Origin: Methanosphaerula subterraneus
GTDB lineage: Archaea; Halobacteriota; Methanomicrobia; Methanomicrobiales; Methanospirillaceae
Direction of reading: 5' to 3'
Assembly: GCF_052055875.1 (NCBI RefSeq)
Contig: NZ_CP170508.1
Location: 1,300,177 to 1,332,176, forward strand
Length of the DNA: 32,000 nucleotides
Shown here: positions 1,133-18,703 of the stretch, one piece after another
How positions within the stretch are numbered: position 1 is the stretch's first letter
Layout of the letters: each line of letters starts with the position of its first letter
Program-made: the position numbers and the translations under genes
Notes under the pieces: model-generated
Told to the model about the DNA's origin: nothing
Database searches by the model: none
The model's input: only the letters and a program-made list of their open reading frames with translations

Positions 1133-1935
1133 CAGCCCCACTGCCAGCCCTCCCCGAGCGCCGTATAGATCGCAGCGATCGTGATATCGGCGAGTGAACC
1201 GGGATTGACCTTCTCCTGTATACACCAGGCGTCGAGCGATTCGACGGACTTCTGCCCCCGCAGGACCTCGGCTGCCATCAACCGGGTCTGTTCGGCCTTC
1301 GCCCGCCCGAACTTCTTGACGATGAAGGAGTCCTGCTCGGTGGCGAGCAGGTTCAGAAACGCCGCCGGGATCGCAGAGCGCGCGTCATCCGATGCGAGCA
1401 GGAGGTCTGCGGTGCGCCGGGTCAGGGTGAATCCGTTCACCCACTCGCGGGCGACCATGTCCTTCTCTGCAGAGTAGACCATCAGGTCGTAGAGGGTCAT
1501 CCCCCGGGCATGAATCTGCTCTGTAGCAGCCGGGTCATGCACATCGAGTTCGTCCTCGGCACAGACCCGCACCTCGGTCATCCCGAACGCACGATAGAAC
1601 TCGATCGCGTCCTGGACCGTCGTCGTTCCGATCTCCCGGGCCGCCCCGGGGATATCGCCCCCACAGACCAGCGGCATCAGCAGGATGAACGCACCGAAAT
1701 GGGTATTTCCCCCCCGATGGGAGGAGGTGGCCTGCACGGCCTCGCGGATCAGCGTACCGATCCCGGCAGCCCGCCGCTCCGCCCGCTCGAGGACGGGCCT
1801 GACCATCAGGGTCGACGCGAGGAAGTGTTCCAGCCGGGTGTCAGGATAGTCATGGCAGCGGTCGACATTCCCCGGCTTGGGGGAGGCACAGACCTCGAGC
1901 ATCATCGCCAGCTGCGCCTGCTCAGCCAGGCTCAC
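1132..1935 (-). CDS. CitG/MdcB-family triphosphoribosyl-dephospho-CoA synthase-like protein
   Basis: 267-aa ORF. The N-terminal EVCASPKPGNVDRCHDYPDTRLEHFLAS matches the CitG hallmark (E...pKPGlVd....H.Dm....F..S). Its start lies 3 nt downstream of the preceding gene, and its stop overlaps the next start. Confidence 0.8.
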   Translation of the reverse strand: MSLAEQAQLAMMLEVCASPKPGNVDRCHDYPDTRLEHFLASTLMVRPVLERAERRAAGIGTLIREAVQATSSHRGGNTHFGAFILLMPLVCGGDIPGAAREIGTTTVQDAIEFYRAFGMTEVRVCAEDELDVHDPAATEQIHARGMTLYDLMVYSAEKDMVAREWVNGFTLTRRTADLLLASDDARSAIPAAFLNLLATEQDSFIVKKFGRAKAEQTRLMAAEVLRGQKSVESLDAWCIQEKVNPGSLADITIAAIYTALGEGWQWG

Positions 1936-1938
1936 CCG

Positions 1939-3057
1939 TTACACCTCATCAAAGATCCGGTCCATCAGCCTGTCGGCGAGCCGATGCTTGTAGCGCATAT
2001 AGTCCTTCTTGGTGAGACCGATCTGCTGGATCGTCATGTCCCTGAACATGCAGGGGGATGACGACTTGCAGCACCAGGCCAGCGACCCGAAACAGGTGTG
2101 GTTCCCCTCCTTGAGCGGAGTTGCCTCGACTCCCTGCTGCTTGAATTGCTGGTACTCGTCCCGGGTCATCCCGATCTTCTCCAGCATCGGGAGGAGCGGA
2201 CAGTCCTTGACCGGCATACAGCAGAAGGTCAGGGCACGAATATCCCCGCCCCTGCAGAGCTGCTTGGGGGAGTTGTACCACCCCTCCTCATCGGCGTACC
2301 GGGTGATCGCGGCATCGAGGCCGGCGAGGGTCCGTTCATCGGCCTGCCGTGCCAGCGAGACGAGATCCGCTCCATGGGTGAACATGTCGCGCATCTTGTC
2401 GAAGGTGGTGATGGAGTTGTTGGCGATCAGCGTCAGCGGACAGGAGTTCCTGATCTGCCGGAGCTTGGAGTAGCCGTAGTCCATCAGGTCCACGTGCAGG
2501 ATATCGGCCCCGGCCTTCCAGAGCCGTTTCGCCAGCACACGGTCATCGAGGACGACGCCGGCCCGGATCTTCACTGAGACCACAACCCCGTTCTTCTTCA
2601 GAGCGCGGATGATCGCATCGAGTTTGTCCGGATGTTCGAGCAGGTACTGCCCTGCGCCGGCCTCCATCATCTCCGGCTGGCGACAGTGGGCATCGACCTC
2701 GTAGATCACCCGGGTTCCGAACGCTTCGGCGATGCGCGCGAACGCTTCAGGGGTCGACCCGCGGAGGTTCAGACCGATCACCAGGTCCGATCCTTCCAGC
2801 AGTTTGAGCTCCTCTGACAGTGCCTCCACCGGGTCCAGATAGATGAACTCGGTCCGTCCCTGCGCAACCAGCCTCTCTGATGCCTCCATCGTCGGTTGAT
2901 CGATGGAGAATCCGCCAAGAAATGCAACACCGACATGGGCCGCCCGGGCTGCCGCATATGCACCATCGACCACCCCGGCCATCGATGCCAGGGCCACCGG
3001 AGTCTTGACGACCTGACCATTGATCAGGAGTTCGAATCGCTCATACTGCTCGCTCAT
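1939..3057 (-). CDS. TIM-barrel flavin-oxidoreductase-like protein (DUS/DHOD-like N-domain) with an 8-Cys C-terminal domain; exact function unknown
   Basis: 372-aa ORF. The N-terminal part (VALASMAGVVDG..., SVKIRAG, ADILHVD, IANNSI) resembles FMN-dependent TIM barrels. The C-terminal ~90 aa carry C..CC....C......C....CC....C, which could bind a metal or Fe-S cluster. It is packed tightly in an operon with the CitG-like and DUF447 genes. Confidence 0.7.
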   Translation of the reverse strand: MSEQYERFELLINGQVVKTPVALASMAGVVDGAYAAARAAHVGVAFLGGFSIDQPTMEASERLVAQGRTEFIYLDPVEALSEELKLLEGSDLVIGLNLRGSTPEAFARIAEAFGTRVIYEVDAHCRQPEMMEAGAGQYLLEHPDKLDAIIRALKKNGVVVSVKIRAGVVLDDRVLAKRLWKAGADILHVDLMDYGYSKLRQIRNSCPLTLIANNSITTFDKMRDMFTHGADLVSLARQADERTLAGLDAAITRYADEEGWYNSPKQLCRGGDIRALTFCCMPVKDCPLLPMLEKIGMTRDEYQQFKQQGVEATPLKEGNHTCFGSLAWCCKSSSPCMFRDMTIQQIGLTKKDYMRYKHRLADRLMDRIFDEV

Positions 3058-3099
3058 GTGGTGATACTCATTAGGTTTTTGGTGACATAGTATTTTGGG

Positions 3100-3552
3100 T
3101 CAGAGGGAGAGGAGGGTGTACCCCTCTTTGGACCGCTGCAGCGGTATCTCCGCCCTGCACTCCTCGATGGAGATCCCCGGGCAGGTCCCGTATGCAGAGA
3201 TCACCTTCTCCCAGGGGACCAGGTAGGCCTCGTTCGCCTTTCCCGGCCCTGGTCGGAACTCGACGGCCAGGTATCCCCGTCGGCCGGTCTTCTTCATGAA
3301 CGCGGAGATCCCGTCGACCTGGTGGACATTGTGCTTGTCGGCATGGAAGTGCTGGGAAAAGTAGACCTTCTTCCCCTGCAGGGACTTGCACTCCACCGAG
3401 AGGTAATACTTCGGATCGAGCGAGTCGACCAGCACGTCCACGTACTGCATATTGAATTTCTGCTGCTTGAGCCGGTAGGCAAACCCCTGCAGCCCCTTCT
3501 CGGCGAAGTACCGGTTGAAGCAGTGAACCACCTCCCGCTCGAAGTCTCCCAT
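3100..3552 (-). CDS. Hjc-like PD-(D/E)xK nuclease (archaeal Holliday-junction-resolvase family)
   Basis: 150-aa ORF. FEREVV...AEKGLQGFAYRL...YVDVLVDS...YLSVECKS...GYLAVEFR follows the Hjc pattern ERE..L...GF...R...VDL.A...Y.IEVK...LAVKF, including the D...E-x-K catalytic arrangement. Confidence 0.55.
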   Translation of the reverse strand: MGDFEREVVHCFNRYFAEKGLQGFAYRLKQQKFNMQYVDVLVDSLDPKYYLSVECKSLQGKKVYFSQHFHADKHNVHQVDGISAFMKKTGRRGYLAVEFRPGPGKANEAYLVPWEKVISAYGTCPGISIEECRAEIPLQRSKEGYTLLSL

Positions 3553-3610
3553 ACATAATTATTCGTCCCCTGATCAAAAAAAACGGATTGGTAATATTTT
3601 TTAGATCAGA
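3553..3610. promoter_or_regulatory. AT-rich divergent promoter region between the Hjc-like gene and cfbA
   Basis: A8 run at 3576..3583 (T8 on the minus strand, about 25-30 nt upstream of the minus-strand ATG at 3552). taatatttttta at 3592..3603 lies upstream of the cfbA start candidates at 3611 and 3629. These are TATA-box-like elements in an otherwise GC-rich sequence. Confidence 0.4.
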
Positions 3611-4030
3611 ATGGGTACACAGTACTACATGAGTACCAAAGGATTACTACTGGTCGGACACGGCTCCAAGTTACAATATAATAAAGAACTGATCCTCGAG
3701 ACCGGGAAGATGATCGCTGCAAAGTCCTCAGAGTATATGGTAAAGTGCGGATTCATGTCGATGAACGAGCCGAGCGTCGAGGATATGCTCGAGGAGTTCT
3801 CACACGCATCCATCGACGTCCTCGTCGTGGTACCCCTCTTTCTGGCAAAGGGCATCCATATCGAGAAGGACATTCCCGCCCTGCTCGGCCTCCCCGAGGG
3901 GGGACGGAAGGGAACATTCAAGCTCGACAGCGGGACCGTCCCGCTGGTCTATGCTGAGCCGATCGGGGTCGACCCGCTGCTCGCCGACCTGATGCTGAAG
4001 AATGCCGAGAACGCACTGAAGCTGGTCTGA
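3611..4030 (+). CDS. cfbA: Small CbiX-type sirohydrochlorin chelatase (Ni-chelatase CfbA / CbiXS)
   Basis: About 135 aa. GLLLVGHGSK ... VVPLFLAKGIHIEKDIP is the small CbiX signature, and the gene is first in an operon with cfbE/D/B homologues. An alternative start at ATG 3629 (MSTKGLLLVGHGS) would be leaderless relative to the TATA-like box. Confidence 0.8.
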   Translation: MGTQYYMSTKGLLLVGHGSKLQYNKELILETGKMIAAKSSEYMVKCGFMSMNEPSVEDMLEEFSHASIDVLVVVPLFLAKGIHIEKDIPALLGLPEGGRKGTFKLDSGTVPLVYAEPIGVDPLLADLMLKNAENALKLV

Positions 4031-4037
4031 ACCCGGT

Positions 4038-5243
4038 ATGCGCCTCCTTGTGCTGGATACGATTCACGGCGGCGGAGTGATCGCCGCCTCGCTCGCTGCA
4101 CAGGGGCACCAGGTAGACGCAGTGGACGTGTACCGCGGGGAAGACGGGATCCCGGCAGAGGTGGCGAGGGAACGGCAGTATGACCTGCTGATCGCGCCCG
4201 TCCACCTCGACCCGGCCCACCCCCTGCTCCACCACCATCGGTGTCCGGCGATCACCCACCACCAGGCGGTCAGGTGGATCCTCGGCGACCGGGTGCCTCA
4301 CCCGTTCATCGAGGTGACCGGGGCTCAGGGAAAGACGACGACCGCAACGGCCCTGGCCTCGGTGATGGAGGGTCCGGGGATCCTCCACACCTCGACGGGG
4401 ACCTACCAGTACCCGGAACGGACGCGCCTCTTCCAGTCGAGCATCACCCCGGCCTCAGAGATTGCTGCGGCAGAGGCCGCGCTGGCGATCGGCGGCTGGC
4501 TGATCGCAGAGGTCTCGCTCGGGGTGACCGGGGCCGGCGACCTGGCCGTGCTCACCTCAGGAAATGATTACCGGTGTGCGGCAGGGGCGCGGTCGGCGAT
4601 TGACGAGAAGATCCGGTCTATCGCCGCAGCGCCGGCTGTTGTCGTGCCCCACGAGGTACAGACCGGCCATCGGCACCAGGTCAGCGTCGACCAGGTGGCC
4701 ACGATCAGCAAAGACGAGTGCCGGTTCGCCTACCTGGATGAGGTCGGCCGCTTCAGAAACCCCCTCCTTCTTCTTCCCGCCTACCAGACCCCGCTAGCCC
4801 TGGCGACCACCGCGGCCCTGATCCTCGGCCAGGACCCGTCCCGGCTCGAAGGGTTTGAACCGCTCGCCGGGAGGATGAAGATCAGCAACCGCGGTACGAC
4901 CCTGATCGTGGACAATGCGAACAGCGGGGTCAGCAGGTCCACGACCCGGGAGGCCGTGGACCTGGCCCGCCGCCTGAACCCGGAGAAACCGGTGACCCTG
5001 GTGATCGGGGAGGAAGCCCACGCCGTCTGCGAGGGGTTCCCCCCCGAGGGGATCAGGGCGACGATCAGAGAGACCGGGCCGGCAACGGTGGTGCTGGTCG
5101 GGGAGACGGCCAGAGCGATACAGTCCGGCCTGCCGGAAGGCCGGGTCGGGGTAGCGGAGACGCTCGATGGGGCGATGCCGATGGCAGAGAAACTGACACC
5201 ACAGGGAGGCTCCATCGTCCTCGCTGTGAAGATGTGGAGATGA
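4038..5243 (+). CDS. cfbE: Mur-ligase-like coenzyme F430 synthetase
   Basis: 401 aa. IEVTGAQGKTTTATALA is the Mur-ligase P-loop (TG..GKTT). The gene lies between cfbA and cfbD homologues with gaps of 7 nt and 3 nt. Confidence 0.8.
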   Translation: MRLLVLDTIHGGGVIAASLAAQGHQVDAVDVYRGEDGIPAEVARERQYDLLIAPVHLDPAHPLLHHHRCPAITHHQAVRWILGDRVPHPFIEVTGAQGKTTTATALASVMEGPGILHTSTGTYQYPERTRLFQSSITPASEIAAAEAALAIGGWLIAEVSLGVTGAGDLAVLTSGNDYRCAAGARSAIDEKIRSIAAAPAVVVPHEVQTGHRHQVSVDQVATISKDECRFAYLDEVGRFRNPLLLLPAYQTPLALATTAALILGQDPSRLEGFEPLAGRMKISNRGTTLIVDNANSGVSRSTTREAVDLARRLNPEKPVTLVIGEEAHAVCEGFPPEGIRATIRETGPATVVLVGETARAIQSGLPEGRVGVAETLDGAMPMAEKLTPQGGSIVLAVKMWR

Positions 5244-5246
5244 CCT

Positions 5247-6305
5247 ATGGACTATATCCAACCAAGACCAAGTTCAATCGTAGCGGCGCTCTATACAGCC
5301 AGGGATCTGAAGGTCGATGTCGCGATCCTGCACGGCCCTTCAGGATGCTCATTCAAACACGCCCGGCTGCTGGAGGAGGATGGGATGCGGGTGCTGACCA
5401 CCTCGCTCGCAGACAACGAGTTCATCTTCGGCGGCCAGGAGGCGCTGGAGCGGGTGCTCATCCATGCCGAGAAAACCTTCCACCCGAAGAGGATGGCGGT
5501 GATCGGCACCTGTGTCTCGATGATCATCGGGGAGGACCTCCAGTCTGCGCTGCATGCGACGACGGTCCCCTCGATCGCGGTCGACGTCCATGCCGGGTTC
5601 AAGGAGAACATCGAAGGCGTGATCCTCACCCTGGTCGCCGCCGCAGAGGCCGGGTGGATCAGCGCCGAGGAACTGGCACGGCAGCGGCGACTGCTGGCCG
5701 CGGCCAATGAGGTCGAACGGCTCCGCGGGGCCGCGAGCAGGAGTTATATCGAACCTGAACGCGGGGACCTGAAGCATACGGCGGCACAGCGGCTCCTCGA
5801 ACTGGCCACCAGCGGGGCCCGCGGGATGGCCATCATGAACGCCAAGAAGGAGACGGCCTACATGTTCGCCGATGAACTGCTCGCCCTCCACGAGGTGGCG
5901 CCGGACGCACCCATCCGTTACCTGGCCAACCTCGAACAGCGCGGCCTCCCCAAGGTCCGATTGGATGCGGAGCGGATCCTCCAGGGGCTGGAGGCAGGAG
6001 GGCTGACCCCGGAACTGGTCGGGGCGCTGGATGAGTACGGGGCCCTCGGCGACCAGATCGGGGAGGAGATCGAACGGACGAACCCAGACTTCGTGCTGCT
6101 CGTCGGGGTTCCGCATGCCGTCCCTGCCCGGTATACCGAGGGGCGGGAGGTCTTCTCGATAACGAACGGCCCCCGACAGGTGGCCCCGCTCCGGGAGTTG
6201 GGGCACCAGCACGTGCTCGTCGAGGTGGACCTGCACCCAAAGACTTTAGGCGTCCGCTCCATCGTGGAGAGCGAGTTCGGGGCGGTGCTGAGGTCCCTGG
6301 TATGA
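5247..6305 (+). CDS. cfbD: Nitrogenase NifD/K-like (NflD) component of Ni-sirohydrochlorin a,c-diamide reductive cyclase
   Basis: 352 aa. The N-terminus ILHGPSGCSFKHARLLEEDG...FIFGG...AVIGTCVSMIIGEDL is typical of nitrogenase component-1-type oxidoreductases. Its stop overlaps the cfbB start (ATGA at 6302..6305). Confidence 0.8.
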   Translation: MDYIQPRPSSIVAALYTARDLKVDVAILHGPSGCSFKHARLLEEDGMRVLTTSLADNEFIFGGQEALERVLIHAEKTFHPKRMAVIGTCVSMIIGEDLQSALHATTVPSIAVDVHAGFKENIEGVILTLVAAAEAGWISAEELARQRRLLAAANEVERLRGAASRSYIEPERGDLKHTAAQRLLELATSGARGMAIMNAKKETAYMFADELLALHEVAPDAPIRYLANLEQRGLPKVRLDAERILQGLEAGGLTPELVGALDEYGALGDQIGEEIERTNPDFVLLVGVPHAVPARYTEGREVFSITNGPRQVAPLRELGHQHVLVEVDLHPKTLGVRSIVESEFGAVLRSLV

Positions 6306-7684
6306 AGACGCTGCTGATCGCCGGCGACCGGTCCGGGAGCGGCAAGACCTCGATCACCCTCGCGCTGGCGGCGCTGCTCAGGAAACGATTCGTCGTCCAG
6401 ACCTTCAAGGTCGGGATGGACTACATCGACCCTTCGTACCTGACCGGGGTGACGAGCCGGCCCTGCAGAAACCTGGACGGGTACGTGATGACCGCCGACG
6501 AGATCCAGGGGATCTACAATCACGGCTGCCAGGGGGCCGAGGTGGCCCTGGTCGAGGGGGTCCGGGGGCTCTACGAGGGGGCGGAGGCCCTCTCCAACAA
6601 GGGCTCGACCGCCGAGGTGGCCAGGCTGCTCGACCTGAACGTGGTGCTGGTGATCAATGCCCGCTCGATCACCAGGAGCGCGGCCGCGATCGTCAAGGGG
6701 TTCATGGCCTTCGACCCTGAGGTGAAGATCTGCGGGGTGATCCTCAACAATGTGATGGGGGAGCGGCACCGGGAAAAGGCTGTCGCCGCCATCGAGCACT
6801 ACTGCGGGGTGCCGGTGATCGGAGCGATCCCGAGGCTCGAGGAGATGCATCTCGCCATGCGCCACCTAGGGCTGGTCCCATACCGGGAAGGGCAGGAAGG
6901 AACCGAGTTTTGCGATCGAATCCAGGCGATCACCGATCTGATCGGGCAGTACGTCTCGATCGATCGTCTCCTCGAACTGGCCGGCGACGTCACGCCCGCC
7001 CCGTCTCCGGCGTACCTCCTCCCTGCAACCGAGCAGGACCTGACGATCGGGGTGGCCTACGACGAGGCCTTCAACTTCTACTATGCCGAGCTCTTCGACA
7101 TCCTCGCCGCCGGGGGGGCCGGGGTCGTCCGGTTCAGCCCGATCCACGACGCCCTCCCGAAAGCCGACGGCTACATCTTCGGCGGCGGGTACCCCGAACT
7201 CTTCGGGGCCGAGTTGGAGGCGAACACCCGGATACGGGAGGCTGTCAAAGCCGCGGCTCTGGCCGGGACGCCGATCTATGCCGAGTGCGGAGGGCTGATG
7301 TACCTGACCGAGGCGATCGTGCTGAAGGAGGGGTGGCAGCAGAGCACCAGGGAGCAGGTCTTCCGGATGTGCGGGGTCTATGCCGGCACCACCGCGATGC
7401 CGGCTGCCCGCGTGGTCACCTATGTCGAAGGAAGCAGCGCCGCCGATTCCCCGATGGGAGCGTATCCCTTCAGGGGTCATGCGTTCCACTACTCTGACGT
7501 GGACCTAGCCCCAGAGACCCGGTACGCCTACACCCTGACCAGGGGGGTGGGGATCACCGGGAACGCCGACGGTGCCCTCTCTAACAACACGCTCGGGGCC
7601 TACTGCCATCTGCACCCGGTCAGCAGCAGGGAGATGTTCGCGGCCTTTCTCCGGACCTGCAGGGCCGCCCGGACTGAAGCGTAA
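6302..7684 (+). CDS. cfbB: Cobyrinate/Ni-sirohydrochlorin a,c-diamide synthase (CbiA/CobB family; CfbB by context)
   Basis: 460 aa. It has the P-loop IAGDRSGSGKTSITLALA, a C-terminal glutamine-amidotransferase domain with nucleophile motif YAECGGLMYL, and translational coupling to cfbD. CfbB versus the cobamide paralogue CbiA cannot be told apart by eye; genomic context favours CfbB. Confidence 0.75.
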   Translation: MKTLLIAGDRSGSGKTSITLALAALLRKRFVVQTFKVGMDYIDPSYLTGVTSRPCRNLDGYVMTADEIQGIYNHGCQGAEVALVEGVRGLYEGAEALSNKGSTAEVARLLDLNVVLVINARSITRSAAAIVKGFMAFDPEVKICGVILNNVMGERHREKAVAAIEHYCGVPVIGAIPRLEEMHLAMRHLGLVPYREGQEGTEFCDRIQAITDLIGQYVSIDRLLELAGDVTPAPSPAYLLPATEQDLTIGVAYDEAFNFYYAELFDILAAGGAGVVRFSPIHDALPKADGYIFGGGYPELFGAELEANTRIREAVKAAALAGTPIYAECGGLMYLTEAIVLKEGWQQSTREQVFRMCGVYAGTTAMPAARVVTYVEGSSAADSPMGAYPFRGHAFHYSDVDLAPETRYAYTLTRGVGITGNADGALSNNTLGAYCHLHPVSSREMFAAFLRTCRAARTEA

Positions 7685-8644: not shown

Positions 8645-8719
<75 letters not shown>

Positions 8720-8840: not shown

Positions 8841-11720
8841 CTACTGGACGATGAACTGTCCGGTCATCGTGGTCGGATGCACGTCGCACCGGAAGAAGTA
8901 TGTCCCCGGCGTGGTCGGTGCGGTGAAGGTATAGGTCGTGGTGACCGGCCCGGTCACGATCGGGCCTTTAAAGAAGCTCGTGCTTGCCGATGAGTCGGTG
9001 TAGACCGCGAAGTTGTGCGGTACCCCGGAGTCCATGTTGTTGAAGGTGACCGTGACCTGCCCCCCGGCCTGAACCGTGATCGTCGACAGGCTGAATGCAA
9101 GGTTCTGGGCCGTGAGATTGACCGATGTGGTGAGGCCGGCAGGCGTCGTCGCCGCGGTGGTGACCGAAGTCGTGGTCACCGGGGCCGTAGTGGTCGCCGT
9201 GGCGGTCACGATTGGCGCCACACTGGCATTGCCGATGGGGACCAGGCCGGAGGTGTTCGCTGAGACCATCTTCCAGACCTCGCCCGAGGTTTGCGGTGTG
9301 ATCCCGGGGCCGCCATTCTGGTTGATCAGGACGAGGACCTCGTGGTCGGCGTTCTCGTACATGCCTCGGACGAAGGCGTTGATCCGTCCGTTCGCGTTAT
9401 TGGCGACAGTCATCTCCGAGGTCGTCCACATCGCGTTCTCAGCCGCGGTCAGGTTCGCCGCGTTGTCGGGCAGGGTCGCCGTGTCCAGGCCGGCGGGCGG
9501 CGTGGCGACGAGGAGGGTCCCGTTGCCCGCGGTAAAGCTGTCGGACCAGGTGCCGAAGATGTACGAGCCCTGCAGCGACGAGAGGGCGCTGCCACGGTAG
9601 ACGACGCCGCCGACGATGACGTTGCCGACATCGTGGCCGAGTTCGACCACCGGGCCGATCAGCGGCTGCCCGTTGTAGCTGGTGATCCTGCTGGTGGTGT
9701 TCGGCACCGCCCTGTCGCTGGCCGGGTCGAAACTGTGCGTCCCCTCGCGGATGTTCCAGGGGTAGGCGCCGCCTTTGTAGATGACCAGCGCAGACTCGAA
9801 GAGATTCTGTCCGGCCATCGCGACGAACATCCGGTTGCTCCCGCCGGAGTCAAACGCCGCGAACGCCGGGTTGCGGAAGCCGTAGGCGTAGATCTCCGGC
9901 AGGACGGTCGCGTTCGAGAGGAACGGGTTGCCCGCCGGGATGCCGTAATCCTTGCCCGCGCTCGTGGTGTCCACGTCGATCCTGATCACCTTGCCGAGGA
10001 GCGTGGTCAGGTCCTGGCCGTTGCCGATGGCCGGCGTGTGGCCCATGCCGGTGTCGTCGGCACGTCCACCGTCGCCGAGGGTCAGGTAGAGGTAATTGTC
10101 CGTCGGCCCGAAGAGGAGGATGCCGCCGTTGTGGTTCATATACGGCTTGTCGATCTCAAGCAGGATCCGCTCTGAGGAGTTGTTCACCTGGTTTTGGCTG
10201 GCGTTCGATACCGTGAACTCGGAGAGGCGGTTGGTGCAGGACCAGTTCGGGTCCGCGCCGGCACGGAGCGGCGCGCTGTAATAGGCATAGACCTTTCCGT
10301 TCGACGAGAAGTTCGGGTGGAACGCGATCGAGAGCAGCCCCCGCTCGTCGTATGCCGAGCTCAGGTTGACCATCCTATCGCGGACGTCGAGGAACGGCTG
10401 GTCGAGGACCGTTCCGTTCATGAAGAAGATCTTCACGTACCCGTTCTGGTCGACGAGGAAGAGCCGGCCGCTCCCGTCACCGGGCTCTGCGACGAAGAGC
10501 GGCGACGTGAAGTTGCCGGCCACGCGCTGGAGGCCGATCGGCATGGCGGACGTCTGCAGCATCGTCGTCGACCGGTTGCCGGCGATCATTGCGGCCAGGG
10601 GCGAGTTCTGGTTCGTGAGGTCGGTGACGTTCGTGACCGGAGTCGGGGTTGGGGTCACGTTACCGGTGGGTGTCGGAGTGACGGTGCCACCGCCCCCGTC
10701 GGACGTCGGCGTCGGGGTCACGTTGCCTGTGGTCGTCGGCGTTGGGGTTCCGGTTGCCGTGACCGTGACGCTGTCGTTCATGATCGGTACGACCGGCGTG
10801 TGGTCGTTATTCACGAGCTGGACTGCGAACCTGTGCTGCCCGGGCGTCACGTTCGTGAACACGTATGTCGTCCCCGAGACATGGTTCCAGACCGCAGTCG
10901 GATCGGTCGGGATTGCCGGCTGACCCGGAGTGTCAGGGATCTGATTCACGTCCATGTAGAAGTGGACGTGCCCTTCGCCCGCGACGTTCGCCTGCCCCTG
11001 CTTGTCGACGACGCTGAAGTTACTGACCATCGCGGTCACCGTTACGTTCCCGGGGGTCACGACCGTCCCGTTCTGCGGAGAGGTGATCATGATCGCGGCC
11101 TCGCCGGCGGTCTGGTTCCCTGTCGGCGTCACGCTCGGGCCACCCGCCATCTCAAAGGTCATGTAGTCGAGGTTTTGGGCGTCCTTCACGAACTGGAGCC
11201 GGATGTAGTGGCTCCCTGCCGGCAGGGTGACGTTGGCGGTCGCGTCCTCGTAGGTGTCGAAGGACTTCGTGTCCGGGACTTTGACCTGCGCCTCTAAGAC
11301 GCCGTCGACCCAGACCCATACCTCACGCTCGGCCCACGGGCTTGAGGCACGGAACGTCGCCAGGTATGTCCCGGCTTCCTGAATATCGACCGTGTAGGTC
11401 AGCCATTCAGAGGACTTGACGAACGCGACCACATGCCCGGACCCGCCGGTCTCGATGTCGACATCATCCTGGCGATAAGCGCCGCCCTCGTTACCGGAGG
11501 TCCGGTCGAACCAGGCGATGCCCTGGCCGCCGGTGTCATAGTCCTCGGCCTCGATCTGGCCGGGGATCGCGGAGGAAGTTCCTGTGAATGGATGGAACTG
11601 ATGCTCCGTTGAGGTTGCGTTCCCGCTGGGGGAACTCGTTCCCGTGGGGATTGCCGCCACGGCCAATGCCACCATTGCCATGCAGAGCACGGCGATGAGG
11701 GCGATCGTAGTTCTATTCAT
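8841..11720 (-). CDS. Secreted multidomain protein: signal peptide, CBM6-like module, DUF4399-like domain, Thr/Pro linker, PQQ-type glucose/sorbosone dehydrogenase (GSDH) beta-propeller, Thr-rich linker, C-terminal type-1 copper (cupredoxin) domain
   Basis: 959-aa ORF; the motifs for each domain are listed in the sub-features below. The signal peptide is MNRTTIALIAVLCMAMVALAVAA. The protein has about 27 N-x-S/T sequons by my count. Confidence 0.9.
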   Translation of the reverse strand: MNRTTIALIAVLCMAMVALAVAAIPTGTSSPSGNATSTEHQFHPFTGTSSAIPGQIEAEDYDTGGQGIAWFDRTSGNEGGAYRQDDVDIETGGSGHVVAFVKSSEWLTYTVDIQEAGTYLATFRASSPWAEREVWVWVDGVLEAQVKVPDTKSFDTYEDATANVTLPAGSHYIRLQFVKDAQNLDYMTFEMAGGPSVTPTGNQTAGEAAIMITSPQNGTVVTPGNVTVTAMVSNFSVVDKQGQANVAGEGHVHFYMDVNQIPDTPGQPAIPTDPTAVWNHVSGTTYVFTNVTPGQHRFAVQLVNNDHTPVVPIMNDSVTVTATGTPTPTTTGNVTPTPTSDGGGGTVTPTPTGNVTPTPTPVTNVTDLTNQNSPLAAMIAGNRSTTMLQTSAMPIGLQRVAGNFTSPLFVAEPGDGSGRLFLVDQNGYVKIFFMNGTVLDQPFLDVRDRMVNLSSAYDERGLLSIAFHPNFSSNGKVYAYYSAPLRAGADPNWSCTNRLSEFTVSNASQNQVNNSSERILLEIDKPYMNHNGGILLFGPTDNYLYLTLGDGGRADDTGMGHTPAIGNGQDLTTLLGKVIRIDVDTTSAGKDYGIPAGNPFLSNATVLPEIYAYGFRNPAFAAFDSGGSNRMFVAMAGQNLFESALVIYKGGAYPWNIREGTHSFDPASDRAVPNTTSRITSYNGQPLIGPVVELGHDVGNVIVGGVVYRGSALSSLQGSYIFGTWSDSFTAGNGTLLVATPPAGLDTATLPDNAANLTAAENAMWTTSEMTVANNANGRINAFVRGMYENADHEVLVLINQNGGPGITPQTSGEVWKMVSANTSGLVPIGNASVAPIVTATATTTAPVTTTSVTTAATTPAGLTTSVNLTAQNLAFSLSTITVQAGGQVTVTFNNMDSGVPHNFAVYTDSSASTSFFKGPIVTGPVTTTYTFTAPTTPGTYFFRCDVHPTTMTGQFIVQ
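8844..9125 (-). other. Type-1 copper cupredoxin domain (aa ~866-959)
   Basis: TVQAGGQVTVTFNNMDSGVPHNFAV ... GTYFFRCDVHPTTMTGQFIV. All four blue-copper ligands are present (H902, C945, H948, M952), with C-x2-H-x3-M spacing. Confidence 0.8.
9276..10538 (-). other. GSDH-family (soluble quinoprotein aldose/sorbosone dehydrogenase-like) beta-propeller (aa ~395-815)
   Basis: SPLFVAEPGDGSGRLFLVDQNG.V, ERGLLSIAFHPNF..NG.VYAYYS, HNGGILLFGP.DNYLYLTLGDGG, GQDLTTLLGKVIRIDVD, YGIPAGNPF and EIYAYGFRNP are the conserved GSDH blocks. They include the HNGG histidine corresponding to the catalytic base. Confidence 0.75.
10620..10760 (-). repeat. Low-complexity Thr/Pro linker with an imperfect direct DNA repeat (TGNVTPTPT units)
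   Basis: The protein reads TATGTPTPTTTGNVTPTPTSDGGGGTVTPTPTGNVTPTPTPVTNVT. On the plus strand, ggggtcacgttaccggtgg at 10651 recurs as ggggtcacgttgcctgtgg at 10714, a period of about 63 nt. Confidence 0.7.
10755..11099 (-). other. DUF4399-like domain (aa ~208-322)
   Basis: ITSPQNGTVV...GEGHVHFYMDV...IPTD...PGQHRFAVQLVNNDHTP fits the DUF4399 pattern I.sP.dG..v...GHhHl.vD...ip.d...pG.H.l.l.l.d..H. Confidence 0.5.
11151..11567 (-). other. CBM6/CBM35-like carbohydrate-binding module (aa ~52-190)
   Basis: IPGQIEAEDYDTGGQGIAWFD ... EWLTYTVDIQEAGTYLATFRAS ... GSHYIRLQF...LDYMTFE. The IEAEDYD opening and the beta-sandwich periodicity are typical of CBM6. Confidence 0.6.
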
Positions 11721-11740
11721 GGGTGGCTCAGACGGCCCCT

Positions 11741-11755
11741 TATTATATATATTTT
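11741..11755 (-). promoter_or_regulatory. TATA-box-like element for the 959-aa gene
   Basis: tattatatatatttt lies 21-35 nt upstream of the minus-strand ATG at 11720. This implies a leaderless or very short-leader mRNA. Confidence 0.5.
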
Positions 11756-12429
11756 CTCAGAATGAAACCCTGCATCACAATCCCGACAGGCGGAGTCAGA
11801 CTGCCACTCTGATGGGGCCGCCCCTGGTGCATACAGGGGCTTTGCTGAAGGCGTGGAACCAGCAGTAGCGAAGATGAAGGAGTCTCGGCGACCGTGATCA
11901 GTGCCATGAGAATCGGCTGTACCCACAACGGGCATTTATGATTATTGAGACGACGAACACCGGCCCTTCGCCTCTGTCGTTCAAGGAGAGCAGGAGGCAT
12001 GACACGGCCGGGGTGCTCGGCATCGGTGCAGTTTTATTCTCCAGTAGCGGTATGAGGGGGAGGTACGGTCCCCCGTCACATCTGCTGTCACATCTGTGAT
12101 GCCGCCGATTCCATCGTCTCAATTGCATGCCTCTGTCTCTGGGACAATTCCCATCGTTTTCGAATAATGTTTATAACCATTGTACCTTATTGTGTCCCCT
12201 TGAGGGTTAGTAGGGGACGACTTCCCCCGCAGCCGTCCCAGATGCCAGCGGGCAAGGACGCGGAGGCAGAAAACAGGGACCGGTCCCGGCAGAGGTGATG
12301 CCGGCACCGCGATCTCATCAGAGACTGCCGCCGGAACAGAGGGCCCCGGGTGCATCTGGCCAGTGATGATGAGAGATGCGAACACCGGGTGTCAGTGACA
12401 TCCGTGCCAAATCTTATGGAGAGAGAAAG

Positions 12430-14370
12430 ATGCATGCAAGCAAACAGTCCCCTCCGACTCAGGAGGGATCGCCATCCCCGTCGAGAGGGAGTCCTGGTGC
12501 AGGTACGATACGAACCTTCGTCATCGTGCTCCTGCTCGGCGCCATCCTGATCGCAATCGTAACGCCCGCCATCGGTGCTCCCCCGGCCCCAGGGCCGGTT
12601 CTGCTGGACCCGATGACGATCCCGAAGTATGTCAACCAGATCGACGGCCCACCGCCGGAGTACGTCCCGGTCTCCGGGAATACGTATGAAGTGAACGCGA
12701 CCGAGTTTACAGAGCAGATCCTCCCCGCCGGGTTCCCCACGACGAAGGTTTGGGGCTACGGGGGTCTGGCCAGGGACACCGTCACCGGCCAGTTCCTCGG
12801 GTTCGTCCGGAACTCGCCCGGCCCCAGTTTCAACGTCACCCGGGGCACGCAGATCACCGTGAAGTGGATCAACGAACTGACCGGAAACCACATGTTCGCG
12901 GTCGACCCGACCCTCCACTGGGCAAACCCGAACAACATGTCCATGATGCCGACCCTGCCCTGGAACCTGTTCCCACCCGGGTTTACCGACGCACAGCGTA
13001 ACGTTCCCCTGGTGACGCATGTCCACGGCGCCGAGGTCCAGTCGACATCCGACGGCCACCCCGACGCCTGGTGGACCGCAAACGGCACGCAGGGTATGGC
13101 ATATAACACGGCCCAGGCCACCGAATCCAACGCCGCCGTCTTCCAGTATCCGAACGCTCAGCAGGCGGCCACGATCTGGTACCACGACCATGCGCTCGGC
13201 ATCACCCGGATCAACGTGATGTCAGGACTGGCAGGCTTCTTCCTCCTCCGCGATCCGTCGAACCCGGTCGACGCGGTTCTGCCGACAGGGAAGTACGACA
13301 TGCCGATCGCGATCCAGGACCGCACCTTCAACGCCGACGGGTCGCTCTACTTCCCGACGGTCGGTCTGAATCCAACGATCCACCCCTACTGGCAGCCCGA
13401 GTTCTTCGGCAACACGATCATGGTGAACGGCAAGGTCTGGCCGAATATGAACGTGGACCAGGGGACCTACCGGCTCCGGCTTCTGGACGGATCGAACGCC
13501 CGGTTCTACACCCTGAGTTTTTCAAACAAGATGGCGTTCACCCAGATCGCATCCGACGGCGGGTACCTCAAAACCCCTGCGACCCTGACTGAACTGACGA
13601 TGGCGCCGGGTGAGCGTGCGGAGATCCTTGTCGACTTCTCGAAGCTCGCGCCAGGCACGAAGGTGATCCTGACGAACACGGCGAAGGCGCCGACACCCCG
13701 CGGAGCACCCGCGGATCCCCAGACGACCGGCCAGATCATGCAGTTCACGGTGACGGCAAATCCCGGCCCCGCGTTCCCAACCCTGCCGGCCACGCTGAAC
13801 CCGACCCTTAACGGAACCTTCCCGAACCTGCCGGCGCCCACGACGACGCGCTTCCTGACACTCCAGGAGGTCATGGGAGCGGCCGGTCCCACCGAGATCC
13901 TCCTCGATGGAAAGAAATGGATGGCCCCGGTCTCCGAGAACCCCACCAACGGCACGACCGAGGACTGGGTGATCATCAATCCGACGGCGGACACACACCC
14001 GATCCACCTGCACCTGGTCCAGTTCCAGCTCGTGAGTCGTCAGGCCTTCCAGGTCAAGAAGTATCAGACCGACTGGATGGCCCTGAACGGGATGCCCCCG
14101 TTGCCGCTCACTGCCACGGTGATCACGCCGAACATTGTACAGTATCTCCAGGGGAAGGCCACCGGGCCGTTACCGAGTGAACTGGGATGGAAGGACACGA
14201 TCCAGATGAAGCCGGGCGAGGTGACCAGGATCCGGGTACGGTTCGCGTCGCAGGACGGGACGTCGTATCCCTTCGATCCGTCCGTGGGGCCCGGGTACGT
14301 CTGGCACTGCCACATCATCGATCACGAGGACAACGAGATGATGCGCCCCTATCTGGTGCAGCCCTCCTGA
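12430..14370 (+). CDS. Multicopper oxidase (CotA/bilirubin-oxidase/laccase-like, three-domain) with an N-terminal hydrophobic anchor or signal
   Basis: All four MCO copper motifs are intact: THVHG (HVH at 13018..13026), WYHDH (13177..13191), HPIHLH (13996..14013) and HCHIIDHEDNEMM (14305..14343). I prefer the start at ATG 12430 (MHASKQ...), which follows ggagag with an 8-nt spacer; the track ORF opens at 12376. The hydrophobic segment is IRTFVIVLLLGAILIAIVTPAIGA, and there is no twin-arginine motif. Confidence 0.9.
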   Translation: MHASKQSPPTQEGSPSPSRGSPGAGTIRTFVIVLLLGAILIAIVTPAIGAPPAPGPVLLDPMTIPKYVNQIDGPPPEYVPVSGNTYEVNATEFTEQILPAGFPTTKVWGYGGLARDTVTGQFLGFVRNSPGPSFNVTRGTQITVKWINELTGNHMFAVDPTLHWANPNNMSMMPTLPWNLFPPGFTDAQRNVPLVTHVHGAEVQSTSDGHPDAWWTANGTQGMAYNTAQATESNAAVFQYPNAQQAATIWYHDHALGITRINVMSGLAGFFLLRDPSNPVDAVLPTGKYDMPIAIQDRTFNADGSLYFPTVGLNPTIHPYWQPEFFGNTIMVNGKVWPNMNVDQGTYRLRLLDGSNARFYTLSFSNKMAFTQIASDGGYLKTPATLTELTMAPGERAEILVDFSKLAPGTKVILTNTAKAPTPRGAPADPQTTGQIMQFTVTANPGPAFPTLPATLNPTLNGTFPNLPAPTTTRFLTLQEVMGAAGPTEILLDGKKWMAPVSENPTNGTTEDWVIINPTADTHPIHLHLVQFQLVSRQAFQVKKYQTDWMALNGMPPLPLTATVITPNIVQYLQGKATGPLPSELGWKDTIQMKPGEVTRIRVRFASQDGTSYPFDPSVGPGYVWHCHIIDHEDNEMMRPYLVQPS

Positions 14371-15997: not shown

Positions 15998-18514
15998 TCA
16001 GAGCACCGAATAGATCGCAAACCCGGCCTCCTCCAGGAACCGTGGGATCGTGCGAATGGCGTCCCGGTCCTTCTCCTTAACATCGTCCGAGAGAGATCCC
16101 CAGGGAATGAGGTCGGGATGCACCCTCTCTTCATTGTCAAGCACCTCTCCTCTGACCCAGCCATTCCGCTTCATCTCCTCCATCCAGCGGCCGTGCTCTT
16201 TTTGGGCGAGCAATTCCACCTGAAGATCGGAGAATGCCATCACCACCCGGTCGACGCCCATGGCCTTCGGCATGATCCCGCAGTTCACCACCCGCAGTTT
16301 CTGCCGAATCTCCCGCGCCTGATCACGGGTGGACTCCCTGAACTCCTCCGGAAGCGTCTCCCACGGTAACGCCATCGGCGGTAGTTGACCTGCGGTGCCC
16401 GGCGTCACGTTGGCCAGATACTCCGCGTGGATGGCCAGGGCCATCGGTTCCACCATGCGCTCGAAGAGGATGTCCTGCAGCATCAGCAGCCTGAAGAGAG
16501 CCGCGTCCACATGGAGTGCGAGTTGCTCTATCGGCGGGATCGATGCAGGATCGAAGATCTTCTTATCGGTGAGGGTGCTCATCTCCACAATCGCCTGCAT
16601 CGACCGCACACCGTGGCGATAGGCGGGAACCTTCAGAAACGCCCGGAGAACTCCAGAGTCGATCGGGACCATCCCGGACGCGGTGACAAGGTGTTTCGCC
16701 GTCCGTTCGATGATCGAGCGGAGAAGGAGGGCCCGGCGCACAAGATACCGACCTTCGTCATCCGGACCGGGGTTACAGCCCCGGATGTCGATCCGCCCCC
16801 GAAGCCGGCTGATGAAATCGGGTACCTTCGCATTCTTCAGCGCGGGGCCATCCTGGACACCACCCCCCTTCGCGAACTCATCGAATGAGACGCTCGTTCC
16901 GCCGGCGAAGACGAAGACCGCCCGGCCGATCGGGTGCGACGACTCGCCGTCCTTGAAGACCCCGTCCTGCATCGGGGCGAGGAAGAACCGGAGCCATCCG
17001 AGTGGGTGGTCCCCGAACCGGGCGTCGAACTCGTCGAAGAAGACAAGGGGGATCTTCCCTTCGAGGGCCGCGTCCCGGATGAGGTGAAATGCGCCGACGA
17101 GGTCACGCGTGGACTCGAACTGCGACAGGTTGAAGGTCATGGGCTCGATCTGCTCGGGGGCCATCCCCTTCGAGAGCTCGCTGACCCCAAACGACTTGCC
17201 CGAGCCCGGGGGCCCGAAGACGGCGAACGAGAGCGGTCGACGGATCTGCGTGTTACTGATGTACTCCGCCAGAAGGTTGCGGATGCTCTGGTAACTTTCG
17301 ATCTCGTCCCGGTCGACGACGACCAGGTTATTGAACCGTGCGATCGGAACGGGATTCTGCAGCGCCCCCACGCCTTCCCGCACAATCCGACGGGCAATCT
17401 CCTCGAACTGGGTCCGTTCGAGGTGATGGAGGATGGTCCAGTGGGGATCGTCTTCGAGGGCCTGGAGATCGTCGAAGTCGACACGTTCGATCAGGCCGTC
17501 CTCGGGGACCGACGGCGTGAAGAGTTCGGGGCCGGGATAGGCAGGGGCGCCGGGGTCCGTCCCGTACCCGAGGCGGAAGAGGCGGCGGGAGGCGATGATC
17601 CCCTCCCTGACACCGTCTATTGTCCCGGCCTCACCGTCGCAGGCGAGGCGGCGGGTGAGTGCCGCGACGAAGGCCGGGGTCAGCCCCTGCATATCACCGG
17701 GGTACTGGTACTGGTCCTTATAGGCATCCTCGTACCCCTGGGGATCGAACAGGAACGTTGCAACCGAGCCTTCGCCGGTGCGCCGGAGGACGAGGGCGCC
17801 GTCGATTCCGATCCGGATGACCAGGGTCGAAACCGCGGTCAGCGGGCGGAGGGCAGGGTTGTAGGCGATCTGCCAGGCGAGGTCGGTAACGGTCCGCTCC
17901 CACGAGAGCCGGCGGCTGATGTTCGCCCCGAGGGTCCGGAGGTCGTTGGCCGAGATGACGACGACCAGGCGATCAGCGTGGTCTTTGAGGAGGCGATCCC
18001 AGAGTCCGCCTCTGGCGAGCGGATGGCTCATCTTCAGGACGACGAGAGGGCGGGACTCCGGGTTCTTGATGGCCGAGGGCCAGGCTGTATCGTTATCGCG
18101 GAACCCGTTGCCGGCGTCGTCAAGGACAACGATCGTCGCGTCCGCAGGATCGTCATCGAGTGTTGAGACGGCGCCGGCCCCGTCGGCCGGGCCCGAGTAG
18201 CCGAGATACTGGCGGACGCGGAGTACCGTGCTCTCTTTGTTGCCCTTGTCGGTCCCAATCCGGGCGAGGGAGTGGAGGACGGTGTCGGAGGCAGAACCCT
18301 TCAGATCATCAAAGTTGTAGGTGTGCACCGGGTAATCGACCGCGTCGACGAGCATATGGGCGACGAGCAGGGCGCCGCCAGCGTACTGGTGCCAGCGGTA
18401 ACCGGGGTACTTGCGCCAGTTCCGGGGGTCGTCCTCCTTGAGGGGACAGTCGACCTGCAGCCAGTCGAGGGCGATATCACCGGCGACGACGATCTTCGGG
18501 GATTTCTTGTTCAT
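15998..18514 (-). CDS. Large cytoplasmic fusion protein: ribokinase/pfkB-like N-domain, AAA+ ATPase, two C-terminal RyR-domain repeats; function unknown
   Basis: 838-aa ORF with normal amino-acid composition, whereas the overlapping frames are Arg/Pro/Gly junk. Motifs are listed in the three sub-features below. No signal peptide or TM segment. Confidence 0.9.
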   Translation of the reverse strand: MNKKSPKIVVAGDIALDWLQVDCPLKEDDPRNWRKYPGYRWHQYAGGALLVAHMLVDAVDYPVHTYNFDDLKGSASDTVLHSLARIGTDKGNKESTVLRVRQYLGYSGPADGAGAVSTLDDDPADATIVVLDDAGNGFRDNDTAWPSAIKNPESRPLVVLKMSHPLARGGLWDRLLKDHADRLVVVISANDLRTLGANISRRLSWERTVTDLAWQIAYNPALRPLTAVSTLVIRIGIDGALVLRRTGEGSVATFLFDPQGYEDAYKDQYQYPGDMQGLTPAFVAALTRRLACDGEAGTIDGVREGIIASRRLFRLGYGTDPGAPAYPGPELFTPSVPEDGLIERVDFDDLQALEDDPHWTILHHLERTQFEEIARRIVREGVGALQNPVPIARFNNLVVVDRDEIESYQSIRNLLAEYISNTQIRRPLSFAVFGPPGSGKSFGVSELSKGMAPEQIEPMTFNLSQFESTRDLVGAFHLIRDAALEGKIPLVFFDEFDARFGDHPLGWLRFFLAPMQDGVFKDGESSHPIGRAVFVFAGGTSVSFDEFAKGGGVQDGPALKNAKVPDFISRLRGRIDIRGCNPGPDDEGRYLVRRALLLRSIIERTAKHLVTASGMVPIDSGVLRAFLKVPAYRHGVRSMQAIVEMSTLTDKKIFDPASIPPIEQLALHVDAALFRLLMLQDILFERMVEPMALAIHAEYLANVTPGTAGQLPPMALPWETLPEEFRESTRDQAREIRQKLRVVNCGIMPKAMGVDRVVMAFSDLQVELLAQKEHGRWMEEMKRNGWVRGEVLDNEERVHPDLIPWGSLSDDVKEKDRDAIRTIPRFLEEAGFAIYSVL
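16010..16453 (-). other. Tandem RyR (ryanodine-receptor-type) domain repeats (aa ~688-748 and ~764-835)
   Basis: Repeat 2 is ELLAQKEHGRWMEEMKRNGWVRGEVLDNEERVHPDLIPWGSLSDDVKEKDRDAIRTIPRFLEEAGFAIY. It fits the RyR consensus lA..He.W.....GW.yG......hP.L.p...L....Ke.DR..vr.....l...G..i. Repeat 1 (MALAIHAEYL...LPWETLPEEFRESTRDQAREIRQKL) is a more divergent copy. Confidence 0.75.
16715..17332 (-). other. AAA+ ATPase module (aa ~395-600)
   Basis: Walker A FGPPGSGKSF (17192..17215), Walker B IPLVFFDEFDA (17024..17047), sensor-1-like VFVFAGGTS, and the arginine-bearing segment PDFISRLRGRIDI. Confidence 0.85.
17525..18514 (-). other. Ribokinase/pfkB-like domain, probably degenerate (aa 1-~330)
   Basis: The KIVVAGDIALDWL opening, YAGGALLVAH (GG motif region) and VVLDDAGNGF are present. 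Where pfkB kinases have DTxGAGDxF, the sequence reads YPGDMQGLTPAFVAAL. This assignment is by eye only. Confidence 0.4.
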
Positions 18515-18688
18515 GGTCCTGTGCTCCGTGGGTATGAGTGTCTGTTGAGAGGGAAAGGTGTGTTGTAGAGAGTGGTGGTCGTCAGCAGATCAGCCGATCT
18601 CCGCACCGTGACCTCGCACCCGCCGATCCCGCCTGACGTGTCCCAGGGGATACAAAACGTTGATTGGGACCATCGGCCTGAAGCAGAG

Positions 18689-18700
18689 CATTATTATCCA
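18689..18700 (+). promoter_or_regulatory. TATA-like box upstream of the histidine kinase gene
   Basis: cattattatcca is the only AT-rich patch in the 18515..18730 region. It favours a start at ATG 18731 (leaderless) or at 18704. Confidence 0.35.
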
Positions 18701-18703
18701 TTT

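Follow-up and report, generated by a model that had tools for sequence, protein, structure and literature searches.

How would a methanogen, a strict anaerobe, use a secreted dehydrogenase-type propeller that carries its own blue-copper domain, from where would its cofactor come and to where would its electrons go? This question is raised by a single gene in a 32,000-nucleotide stretch of the Methanosphaerula subterraneus genome (hereafter the window, the whole 32 kb that was analysed). The gene occupies 8841..11720 on the minus strand, with an ATG start and the stop codon at 8841-8843 in the list of open reading frames (ORFs), and encodes a secreted multidomain protein of 959 amino acids (aa). 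From the N- to the C-terminus it comprises a signal peptide, a CBM6 module, a DUF4399 domain, a six-bladed GSDH propeller and a type-1 (T1) cupredoxin. The original prediction, made from the nucleotide sequence of this stretch, had given the same ORF coordinates and domain order; both agree exactly with ours, each domain lying above its Pfam cut-off. On balance we lean towards reading the protein as a quinoprotein-type dehydrogenase that is secreted, N-glycosylated and directed to glycans, and that carries its own one-electron acceptor. This answer is built on the domain architecture, the secretion features, the conservation of the catalytic core and of the copper ligands, and the repeated fusion of the propeller clade to electron carriers, all read from sequence.

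Domain architecture and secretion

All Pfam domain calls on the 959-aa protein exceed the curated cut-offs. The signal peptide (aa 1-24, MNRTTIALIAVLCMAMVALAVAAI; 11649..11720, on the minus strand like every feature of the gene) is the sole hydrophobic stretch of the protein (aa 4-25, with a Kyte-Doolittle maximum of 2.97 at aa 6-24). It is followed by the carbohydrate-binding module CBM6 (aa 55-190; 11151..11558), to which Pfam assigns CBM_6 at aa 85-190 (E 8.6e-18, 65 bits against a cut-off of 28.9) and whose aa 55-187 match the CBM6 of C. thermocellum CtXyl5A (2y8k/5la2) with E 1.7e-14 in a PDB sequence search. The DUF4399 domain (aa 208-325; 10746..11099; Pfam at aa 238-321, E 1.6e-7, 32 bits against 28) leads into a Thr/Pro-rich linker with repeated NVTPTPT sequons (aa 326-394; 10539..10745; 45% Thr plus Pro). 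The six-bladed GSDH/HHIP-like beta-propeller (aa 395-812; 9285..10538) was delimited from Pfam (GSDH, PF07995, at aa 418-724, E 8.5e-26, 91.4 bits against 25), PDB matches, an AlphaFold model searched with Foldseek, and residue mapping. A Thr-rich linker (aa 813-856; 9153..9284), recognised by its composition and as a low-confidence region of the model, tethers the type-1 (blue) copper cupredoxin (aa 857-959; 8844..9152), on which Cupredoxin_1 (aa 855-958, E 1.2e-9, 38.6 bits against 27) and Copper-bind (aa 866-959, E 1.3e-6, 29.2 bits against 21.2) are called.

Secretion, which had been claimed before, is borne out by the N-terminal hydrophobic stretch, the Thr/Pro-rich linkers, an excess of sequons and the lack of a C-terminal anchor in a hydrophobicity scan of the 959 residues. 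The protein holds 28 N-x-S/T sequons as compared to 11.9 +/- 3.1 in shuffles of the same protein, an enrichment which supports an extracellular location. Its cysteines number three, one each in the signal peptide, in the propeller and among the copper ligands.

Concerning the cupredoxin, the PDB sequence search returned auracyanin and plastocyanin, and the domain is modelled with a pLDDT (predicted local distance difference test) score above 90. The complete T1 copper site of the original prediction stands: all four predicted ligands, H902 and C945-x2-H948-x3-M952, can be read from the sequence and are invariant in 37 of 37 aligned homologues, and the site is complete in 91 of 120 homologues. 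Since the domain contains a single Cys, the site would be T1 and not CuA. A NosZ-like reading, with a seven-bladed CuZ propeller and a two-Cys CuA cupredoxin, was rejected on account of the six blades, a TM score of about 0.3 (Foldseek) and the single Cys. One sub-clade of homologues carries a degenerate cupredoxin with the motif FRSDPNxGM, in which the Cys and the second His are lost (P0014, P0020, P0023, P0041, P0042, P0049, P0053, P0057, P0059, P0078, P0080 and P0081); most of its members end in a Gly-rich GGGGGY tail, a possible sorting or anchoring signal.

The propeller, its conserved residues and its clade

In the PDB sequence search the propeller ranked HHIP first (E 5e-43, aa 397-625), followed by soluble glucose dehydrogenase (sGDH, 3e-13), P. 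aerophilum Asd (2e-10) and E. coli YliI (3e-6). An AlphaFold model of the propeller-cupredoxin portion (overall pLDDT 71.9, most blades above 85) gave the same ranking of relatives in Foldseek, with HHIP at E 5e-25 and the structures 3A9G and 2ISM at a TM score of 0.72; HHIP, 3A9G, sGDH and 2ISM were all matched with probability 1.0 and target-normalised TM scores of 0.60-0.72, which establishes the six-bladed fold. The earlier description of the propeller as YliI/sGDH-type thus gives way to HHIP as the closest solved relative (5e-43 versus 3e-13). HHIP shares the ERGLLS, AFHP and HxGG motifs with the propeller. It differs in being a eukaryotic, non-enzymatic ligand trap with EGF repeats.

Residues were mapped from sGDH using the sites defined in the literature, with a reference sequence verified to be 100% identical to 1C9U and YliI taken from the K-12 record. 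The sGDH residues H144, R228, N229 and G247 correspond to H530, R616, N617 and G637 of the fusion protein, and all four are invariant in 118 of 118 family members and in 31 of 31 distant bacterial and archaeal relatives. The HNGG histidine noted in the original prediction is thereby retained as H530; by itself it proves nothing, because HHIP, which is not an enzyme, also keeps this catalytic-type His in its HxGG motif (PMC4133262). The Arg-Asn dyad R616/N617 sits in the motif YGFRNP, where HHIP has His and Asp instead, and its invariance, a point absent from the original prediction, argues for catalysis by the propeller. Together with an Arg of the last blade, this His and the Arg-Asn dyad make up the contact core for pyrroloquinoline quinone (PQQ) common to sGDH, Asd and the fungal AA12 enzymes. 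Here R785 aligns with sGDH Arg408 (kept in 102 of 118 members by alignment and in 72 of 76 by motif), with R779 as a possible substitute for sGDH Arg406. The putative active site, within 9285..10538, would therefore consist of H530, R616, N617, G637-Q638, E642 and R785, joined by the clade-specific H561 and E659; H561, Q638 and E659 are invariant and have no counterpart in sGDH and YliI. PQQ is the likely cofactor as judged from these residues. A Cys pair (HCF...C) conserved in more than 90% of the family is replaced by Ser/Ser at aa 663 and 677 (window positions ~9690-9734, minus strand) both here and in M. palustris, and the joint loss of both Cys suggests that a disulfide has been dispensed with in this lineage.

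A check of the taxonomic distribution, proposed together with the original prediction, shows that the architecture is not rare. Full-length homologues occur in Methanomicrobiales, with an M. palustris orthologue of 83% identity, and the propeller-cupredoxin core is widespread there (Methanosphaerula, Methanospirillum, Methanoregulaceae, Methanolinea, Methanoculleus) and already labelled 'PQQ-dependent sugar dehydrogenase/plastocyanin' in NCBI and JGI annotations. Around this core the accessory domains are shuffled within the order: CBM6-GSDH-DUF4399-cupredoxin, DUF4399-CBM6-GSDH-cupredoxin, GSDH-SdrD_B-cupredoxin, GSDH-fasciclin and propeller-only forms are found. Outside Methanomicrobiales, propellers of 35-50% identity are present in many bacteria and some archaea, including other strict anaerobes (Syntrophomonadaceae, Anaerolineales, Methanomassiliicoccaceae). 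The clade as a whole comprises 25,913 representatives at 50% identity (E<=1e-3).

Its members have acquired electron carriers in several ways. A cupredoxin stands N-terminal to the propeller on a Natrinema plasmid and in three Verrucomicrobiota, and a cytochrome c does so in Trueperaceae; in Planctomycetota there are CxxCH motifs. Among 70 diverse clade representatives, 14 carry Copper-bind, two cytochrome c and one, P0294, a whole multicopper oxidase (MCO); in the latter, the propeller and the complete three-domain oxidase form one uninterrupted ORF of 1345 aa (L088, 1494-5531, within one contig). In two Methanospirillum proteins from metagenome-assembled genomes (P0093, P0103), an unrelated, eight-bladed quinoprotein alcohol-dehydrogenase propeller (PF01011, E 4e-46) takes the place of the six-bladed one within the CBM6...DUF4399-cupredoxin frame. 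It has no Cys-Cys pair, and its PDB matches include 6ZCW as the best (E 3e-20) and the quinohaemoprotein alcohol dehydrogenases (ADHs) 1YIQ and 1KB0. Its sequence predicts another PQQ-type fold joined to blue copper in methanogens, the second after the six-bladed one. In Methanoculleus the orthologue has two stand-alone cupredoxin genes as its neighbours. The repeated independent fusion to cupredoxin, cytochrome c and multicopper oxidase speaks for a redox enzyme.

The closest functional analogue is CcPDH/CcSDH of Coprinopsis cinerea, in which an AA8 cytochrome b, an AA12 PQQ propeller and a CBM1 are joined. As predicted for the fusion protein, it is a secreted glycoprotein in which a six-bladed PQQ-type propeller is joined to a module for carbohydrate binding and to a one-electron carrier on a tether; its host is unable to make PQQ, and its pocket is non-canonical yet keeps the His and the Arg-Asn dyad, binding PQQ at about 1 nM nonetheless. 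It differs in that its carrier is a haem b cytochrome and not blue copper, the family of the binding module and the domain order are others, its AA12 propeller belongs to another clade, its host is an aerobic fungus and its known partner is a lytic polysaccharide monooxygenase. None of the AA12 structures 6JWF, 6I1T and 6H7T appeared among the PDB sequence matches (E<=1e-3) or the top 50 fold matches, and the resemblance to AA12 enzymes is functional and architectural only. The fusion protein thus looks like a copper-based archaeal variant of the CcPDH-like design, set in another propeller clade.

With sGDH (1C9U), YliI (2G8S), the P. aerophilum enzyme (3A9G) and the T. thermophilus protein 2ISM it shares PF07995, the six-bladed fold, the catalytic His, the Arg-Asn dyad, the Gly of the Ca-loop, a structural Glu and Tyr and one last-blade Arg, and YliI and 3A9G likewise come from organisms without PQQ synthesis. 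Identity to these enzymes is only 16-21%, however, and the known ones are single-domain proteins with neither a fused acceptor nor a carbohydrate-binding module. The transfer of electrons from a quinone dehydrogenase to a small one-electron carrier, fused or separate, is familiar from quinohaemoprotein ADHs and cupredoxin-dependent quinoproteins: type II ADH has a fused cytochrome c, and amicyanin or azurin serve quinoproteins as acceptors. These ADHs, in contrast, have eight-bladed propellers (PF01011), and the cupredoxin acceptors of the characterised systems are separate proteins. A recent survey found six-bladed PQQ enzymes in bacteria of 77 phyla and in archaea, frequently in genomes that lack pqq genes, and frequently with a haem carrier as partner or fusion (bioRxiv 10.64898/2026.07.10.737718). 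It was defined by the nine PQQ ligands of CcPDH type and by cytochrome partners, and it mentions neither cupredoxin fusions nor methanogens.

In the literature open to our search we found no description of a cupredoxin-fused six-bladed PQQ enzyme or of a PQQ sugar dehydrogenase in a methanogen, and nothing relevant on MCO or plastocyanin in Methanoregulaceae. If our reading is true, the protein would be the first six-bladed quinoprotein dehydrogenase with a built-in blue-copper acceptor and the first evidence of extracellular PQQ-type and copper redox chemistry in methanogens. It would then bear on the survival of oxygen pulses by methanogens in peat, fens and digesters, on PQQ as a public cofactor shared across the oxic-anoxic boundary, and on the role of the HHIP-like clade (~26,000 representatives at 50% identity), among whose members are the ancestors of a signalling protein of animals. 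For direct-electron-transfer biosensors, a fusion in which dehydrogenase and cupredoxin form one self-contained unit has practical interest as well. Should the mechanism fail, what is left is one more auto-annotated 'PQQ-dependent sugar dehydrogenase'.

Cofactor, electron sink and competing explanations

In the mechanism that we propose, CBM6 would hold the enzyme on a polysaccharide, either a plant or microbial glycan or the envelope glycans of the cell itself. The propeller would oxidise an aldose or the reducing end of a sugar, in which H530 would serve as general base and R616/N617 would polarise the carbonyls of the quinone. The cofactor would most probably be PQQ with a divalent metal; the organism, presumably not making PQQ itself, would take it up extracellularly from neighbouring bacteria. 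The two electrons would pass singly to the T1 copper of the C-terminal cupredoxin, swinging on its linker of ~45 residues, and from there to an external acceptor of high potential. We infer the PQQ cofactor, the sugar substrate, the direction of electron flow and an oxidase/O2 sink from the residues, domains and genes described here.

The original prediction left the electron sink open. It missed the most concrete candidate, which lies next to the fusion gene. At 12376..14370 on the plus strand (likely start 12430), separated by an intergenic gap of 655 bp and transcribed divergently, is a gene for a three-domain MCO of the CotA/PhsA/CueO-like type (Cu-oxidase_3, Cu-oxidase and Cu-oxidase_2 in Pfam). 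The oxidase is complete, with all four Cu motifs (HVH215, HDH270, HPIHLH541, HCHIIDHEDNEM644), and is predicted to face outward behind one N-terminal transmembrane or signal segment. Close homologues with 60-77% identity are widespread in Methanoregulaceae, Bathyarchaeota, Asgard archaea and Thermoplasmata, and it deserves notice that an oxidase of O2-reducing type should be common in anaerobes. This MCO would be the best candidate acceptor in the genome; enzyme and oxidase together would form an extracellular sugar:O2 oxidoreductase that makes water and plausibly scavenges oxygen for an oxygen-sensitive cell. The fusion in P0294 and the adjacent MCO suggest a chain from sugar through a quinone cofactor and T1 Cu to the MCO and O2, and we regard MCO/O2 as final sink as a tentative possibility. 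Three DUF305 genes and one Csp copper-storage gene are the neighbours of P0294.

The original prediction raised a genuine cofactor puzzle, though one that this protein shares with others. The 32-kb window gives no sign of PQQ synthesis, no pqq genes being present in it. PQQ enzymes without PQQ synthesis are on record in E. coli, the fungus Coprinopsis cinerea and candidate phyla radiation (CPR) bacteria, the first and the last of these scavenging PQQ; earlier work has also dealt with PQQ enzymes from anoxic habitats, for which diffusion or scavenging has been proposed. A secreted archaeal enzyme, moreover, needs no transporter to acquire its cofactor. One lead to a synthetic route was followed in Methanoculleus, where a propeller-only paralogue (L091/L092, 8051-9498) has downstream of it a 111-aa Cys/Arg-rich ORF and an overlapping radical-SAM/SPASM gene. 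A PqqD/PqqE pair was rejected, the radical-SAM/SPASM gene lying 320 bp away and being absent from the locus of another paralogue. That gene scores below every NCBIfam cut-off; it resembles AhbD/NirJ (280 bits, the cut-off being 500) and is not PqqE (143 against 381).

Several observations weigh against the dehydrogenase reading or parts of it. The only solved structure in the clade of the propeller is that of a protein without enzymatic function, HHIP, and an NCBIfam scan (E<=0.01) gave no match to an s-GDH-family model and only weak cupredoxin-type matches. In the active site, the PQQ-stacking Q231 and Q246 of sGDH are replaced by A619 and A636, both invariant in the family (the wider clade has an aromatic residue and Val at these positions); the Ca-loop keeps its invariant G637 but has an invariant Q638 for sGDH P248, the ligands here being main-chain atoms; Lys377 of sGDH has no counterpart; and in the wider clade the Arg of the last blade varies. 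AlphaFold predicts the loop region of the active site poorly (model residues 166-230). The residue check proposed in the original prediction thus gives a divided answer, with the catalytic His and the Arg-Asn dyad conserved and the PQQ-stacking and Ca-loop residues replaced: the half of the pocket expected to be reactive is under strong selection, and the carboxylate-binding half appears to be built differently. We infer PQQ binding in a non-canonical pocket. As to the copper domain, the cupredoxin is without its Cys and His ligands in 12 of 120 homologues and is missing from 15, so that the copper module is frequent, not obligatory, and dispensable for the propeller. Cofactor supply is uncertain because PQQ biosynthesis requires O2 and relatives of the protein occur in strict anaerobes. 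Finally, no MCO was found beside homologues of the fusion gene in the five other loci examined (one of six including the window), and in another genome with both genes none lies within 8 kb of the fusion gene, so that the link to the oxidase rests on the window and one fusion protein.

These points leave room for other explanations. The same redox architecture, with electrons still passing to the copper domain, might work with another quinone, a metal centre or an anaerobically made cofactor instead of PQQ. The need of PQQ synthesis for O2, together with relatives in several anaerobic lineages, speaks for this, as does the rebuilt ring-face and carboxylate half of the pocket (Q231A, Q246A, P248Q, no K377), in the same region of which the clade-specific invariant H561, Q638 and E659 are placed. 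Yet fungal AA12 enzymes that lack several canonical ligands bind PQQ at nanomolar affinity, the residues conserved are exactly those contacting the reactive quinone carbonyls (His, Arg-Asn), and no alternative biosynthetic genes are linked, the Methanoculleus radical-SAM/SPASM gene not being conserved; we consider another cofactor unlikely. The enzyme may also be as described and deliver its electrons to Fe(III), Mn(IV), another high-potential acceptor or surface cupredoxins. A strictly anaerobic host, the MCO not being a conserved neighbour, and the two extra cupredoxin genes beside the Methanoculleus orthologue, which has no MCO there, would fit such a sink. Against it stand the clade member physically fused to a multicopper oxidase, the complete outward-facing oxidase 655 bp away in the window and the frequency of CotA-like oxidases in the same archaeal families; T1 copper potentials, furthermore, are too high for most anaerobic acceptors. 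Taken together, a sink of this kind seems somewhat improbable. Decidedly speculative, and rather unlikely in our view, is the wider proposal that Methanomicrobiales possess a copper oxidase chain which burns environmental sugars and removes O2 at the cell surface, switched on by PQQ from aerobic neighbours, or else that the clade uses an anaerobically made cofactor other than PQQ. On the oxygen-removal version, the PQQ-leaking aerobic neighbours would appear exactly as oxygen intrudes.

Two further explanations would take the protein away from carbohydrate oxidation. In one, the task of DUF4399 and the cupredoxin would be to bind or reduce surface copper, with the propeller as a source of reducing power or a scaffold. 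DUF4399 has five invariant His (H251 and H253 in GEGHVHFYMD, H280, H296 and H307) and travels with cupredoxins, a separate DUF4399-cupredoxin protein adjoining the propeller gene in Methanoculleus (L003, 2981-3697), and P0294 lies among DUF305 and Csp genes; metal binding by DUF4399 is, all the same, a guess. The domain is modelled by AlphaFold as a seven-stranded beta-sandwich (pLDDT 85.8), for which a PDB sequence search gave no homologue and a fold search gave weak, generic Ig/FN3-like matches alone. A known copper chaperone fold gained no support for it, no fold match to a known chaperone or copper-binding domain being found. Window genes include no copper transporters or chaperones, CBM6 points to glycans, and many family members lack DUF4399; copper handling is therefore a long shot. 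In the other, the propeller would be a non-catalytic binding module, a lectin or a ligand trap like HHIP, and the cupredoxin would have an unrelated role. HHIP is by far the best PDB match in both sequence and fold, and it keeps the catalytic His, but the Arg-Asn dyad that HHIP has lost is invariant here and in distant relatives. Because of the fusions to carriers and an oxidase, which are hard to explain for a lectin, the eight-bladed swap in Methanospirillum and the cupredoxins flanking the Methanoculleus gene, a lectin-like role is very unlikely, to the point of being almost negligible.

The locus and its other genes

Upstream of the fusion gene, 20-32 nt before the ATG, an AT-rich TATATATAATAA element at 11739..11752 on the minus strand was read from the sequence as a probable archaeal TATA box. 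It is probably the gene's own promoter, from which the transcript would start with a short leader or none. A search of the 655-bp divergent intergenic region for shared regulatory repeats turned up no more than short matches in two copies, of a length that chance would give, and such repeats were rejected. Conserved operon partners were likewise rejected, as five homologous loci share no neighbour with this one and just the ilvE/cfb side is syntenic with M. palustris.

On that side lies a cofactor-biosynthesis cluster (569-7684) with the methanopterin-linked DUF447 and CitG genes, a Dus-like gene and the F430 genes, cfbE-like (4038-5243), cfbD-like of nitrogenase type (5247-6305) and cfbB-like (6302-7684). 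The M. palustris orthologue of the fusion gene occupies the same position relative to ilvE and cfbB/D/E; the G+C content is ~62% in the window versus 55.35% in M. palustris, which marks the host as a Methanomicrobiales methanogen related to M. palustris but distinct from it. A methanogen host, as originally proposed, is confirmed by the cfbD/cfbB-type F430 genes, the CitG/DUF447 pair and this synteny. A tRNA-Glu (anticodon UUC; 8645-8719, plus strand), the sole Rfam/ARAGORN match in the window, separates ilvE from the 3' end of the fusion gene. Further along, a gene at 15998-18514 on the minus strand encodes an 838-aa protein with an AAA ATPase domain and, at its C-terminus, a RyR domain (E 4.8e-13); for an archaeon the combination is unusual. 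This gene adjoins that of a 982-aa multi-PAS histidine kinase (18572-21520).

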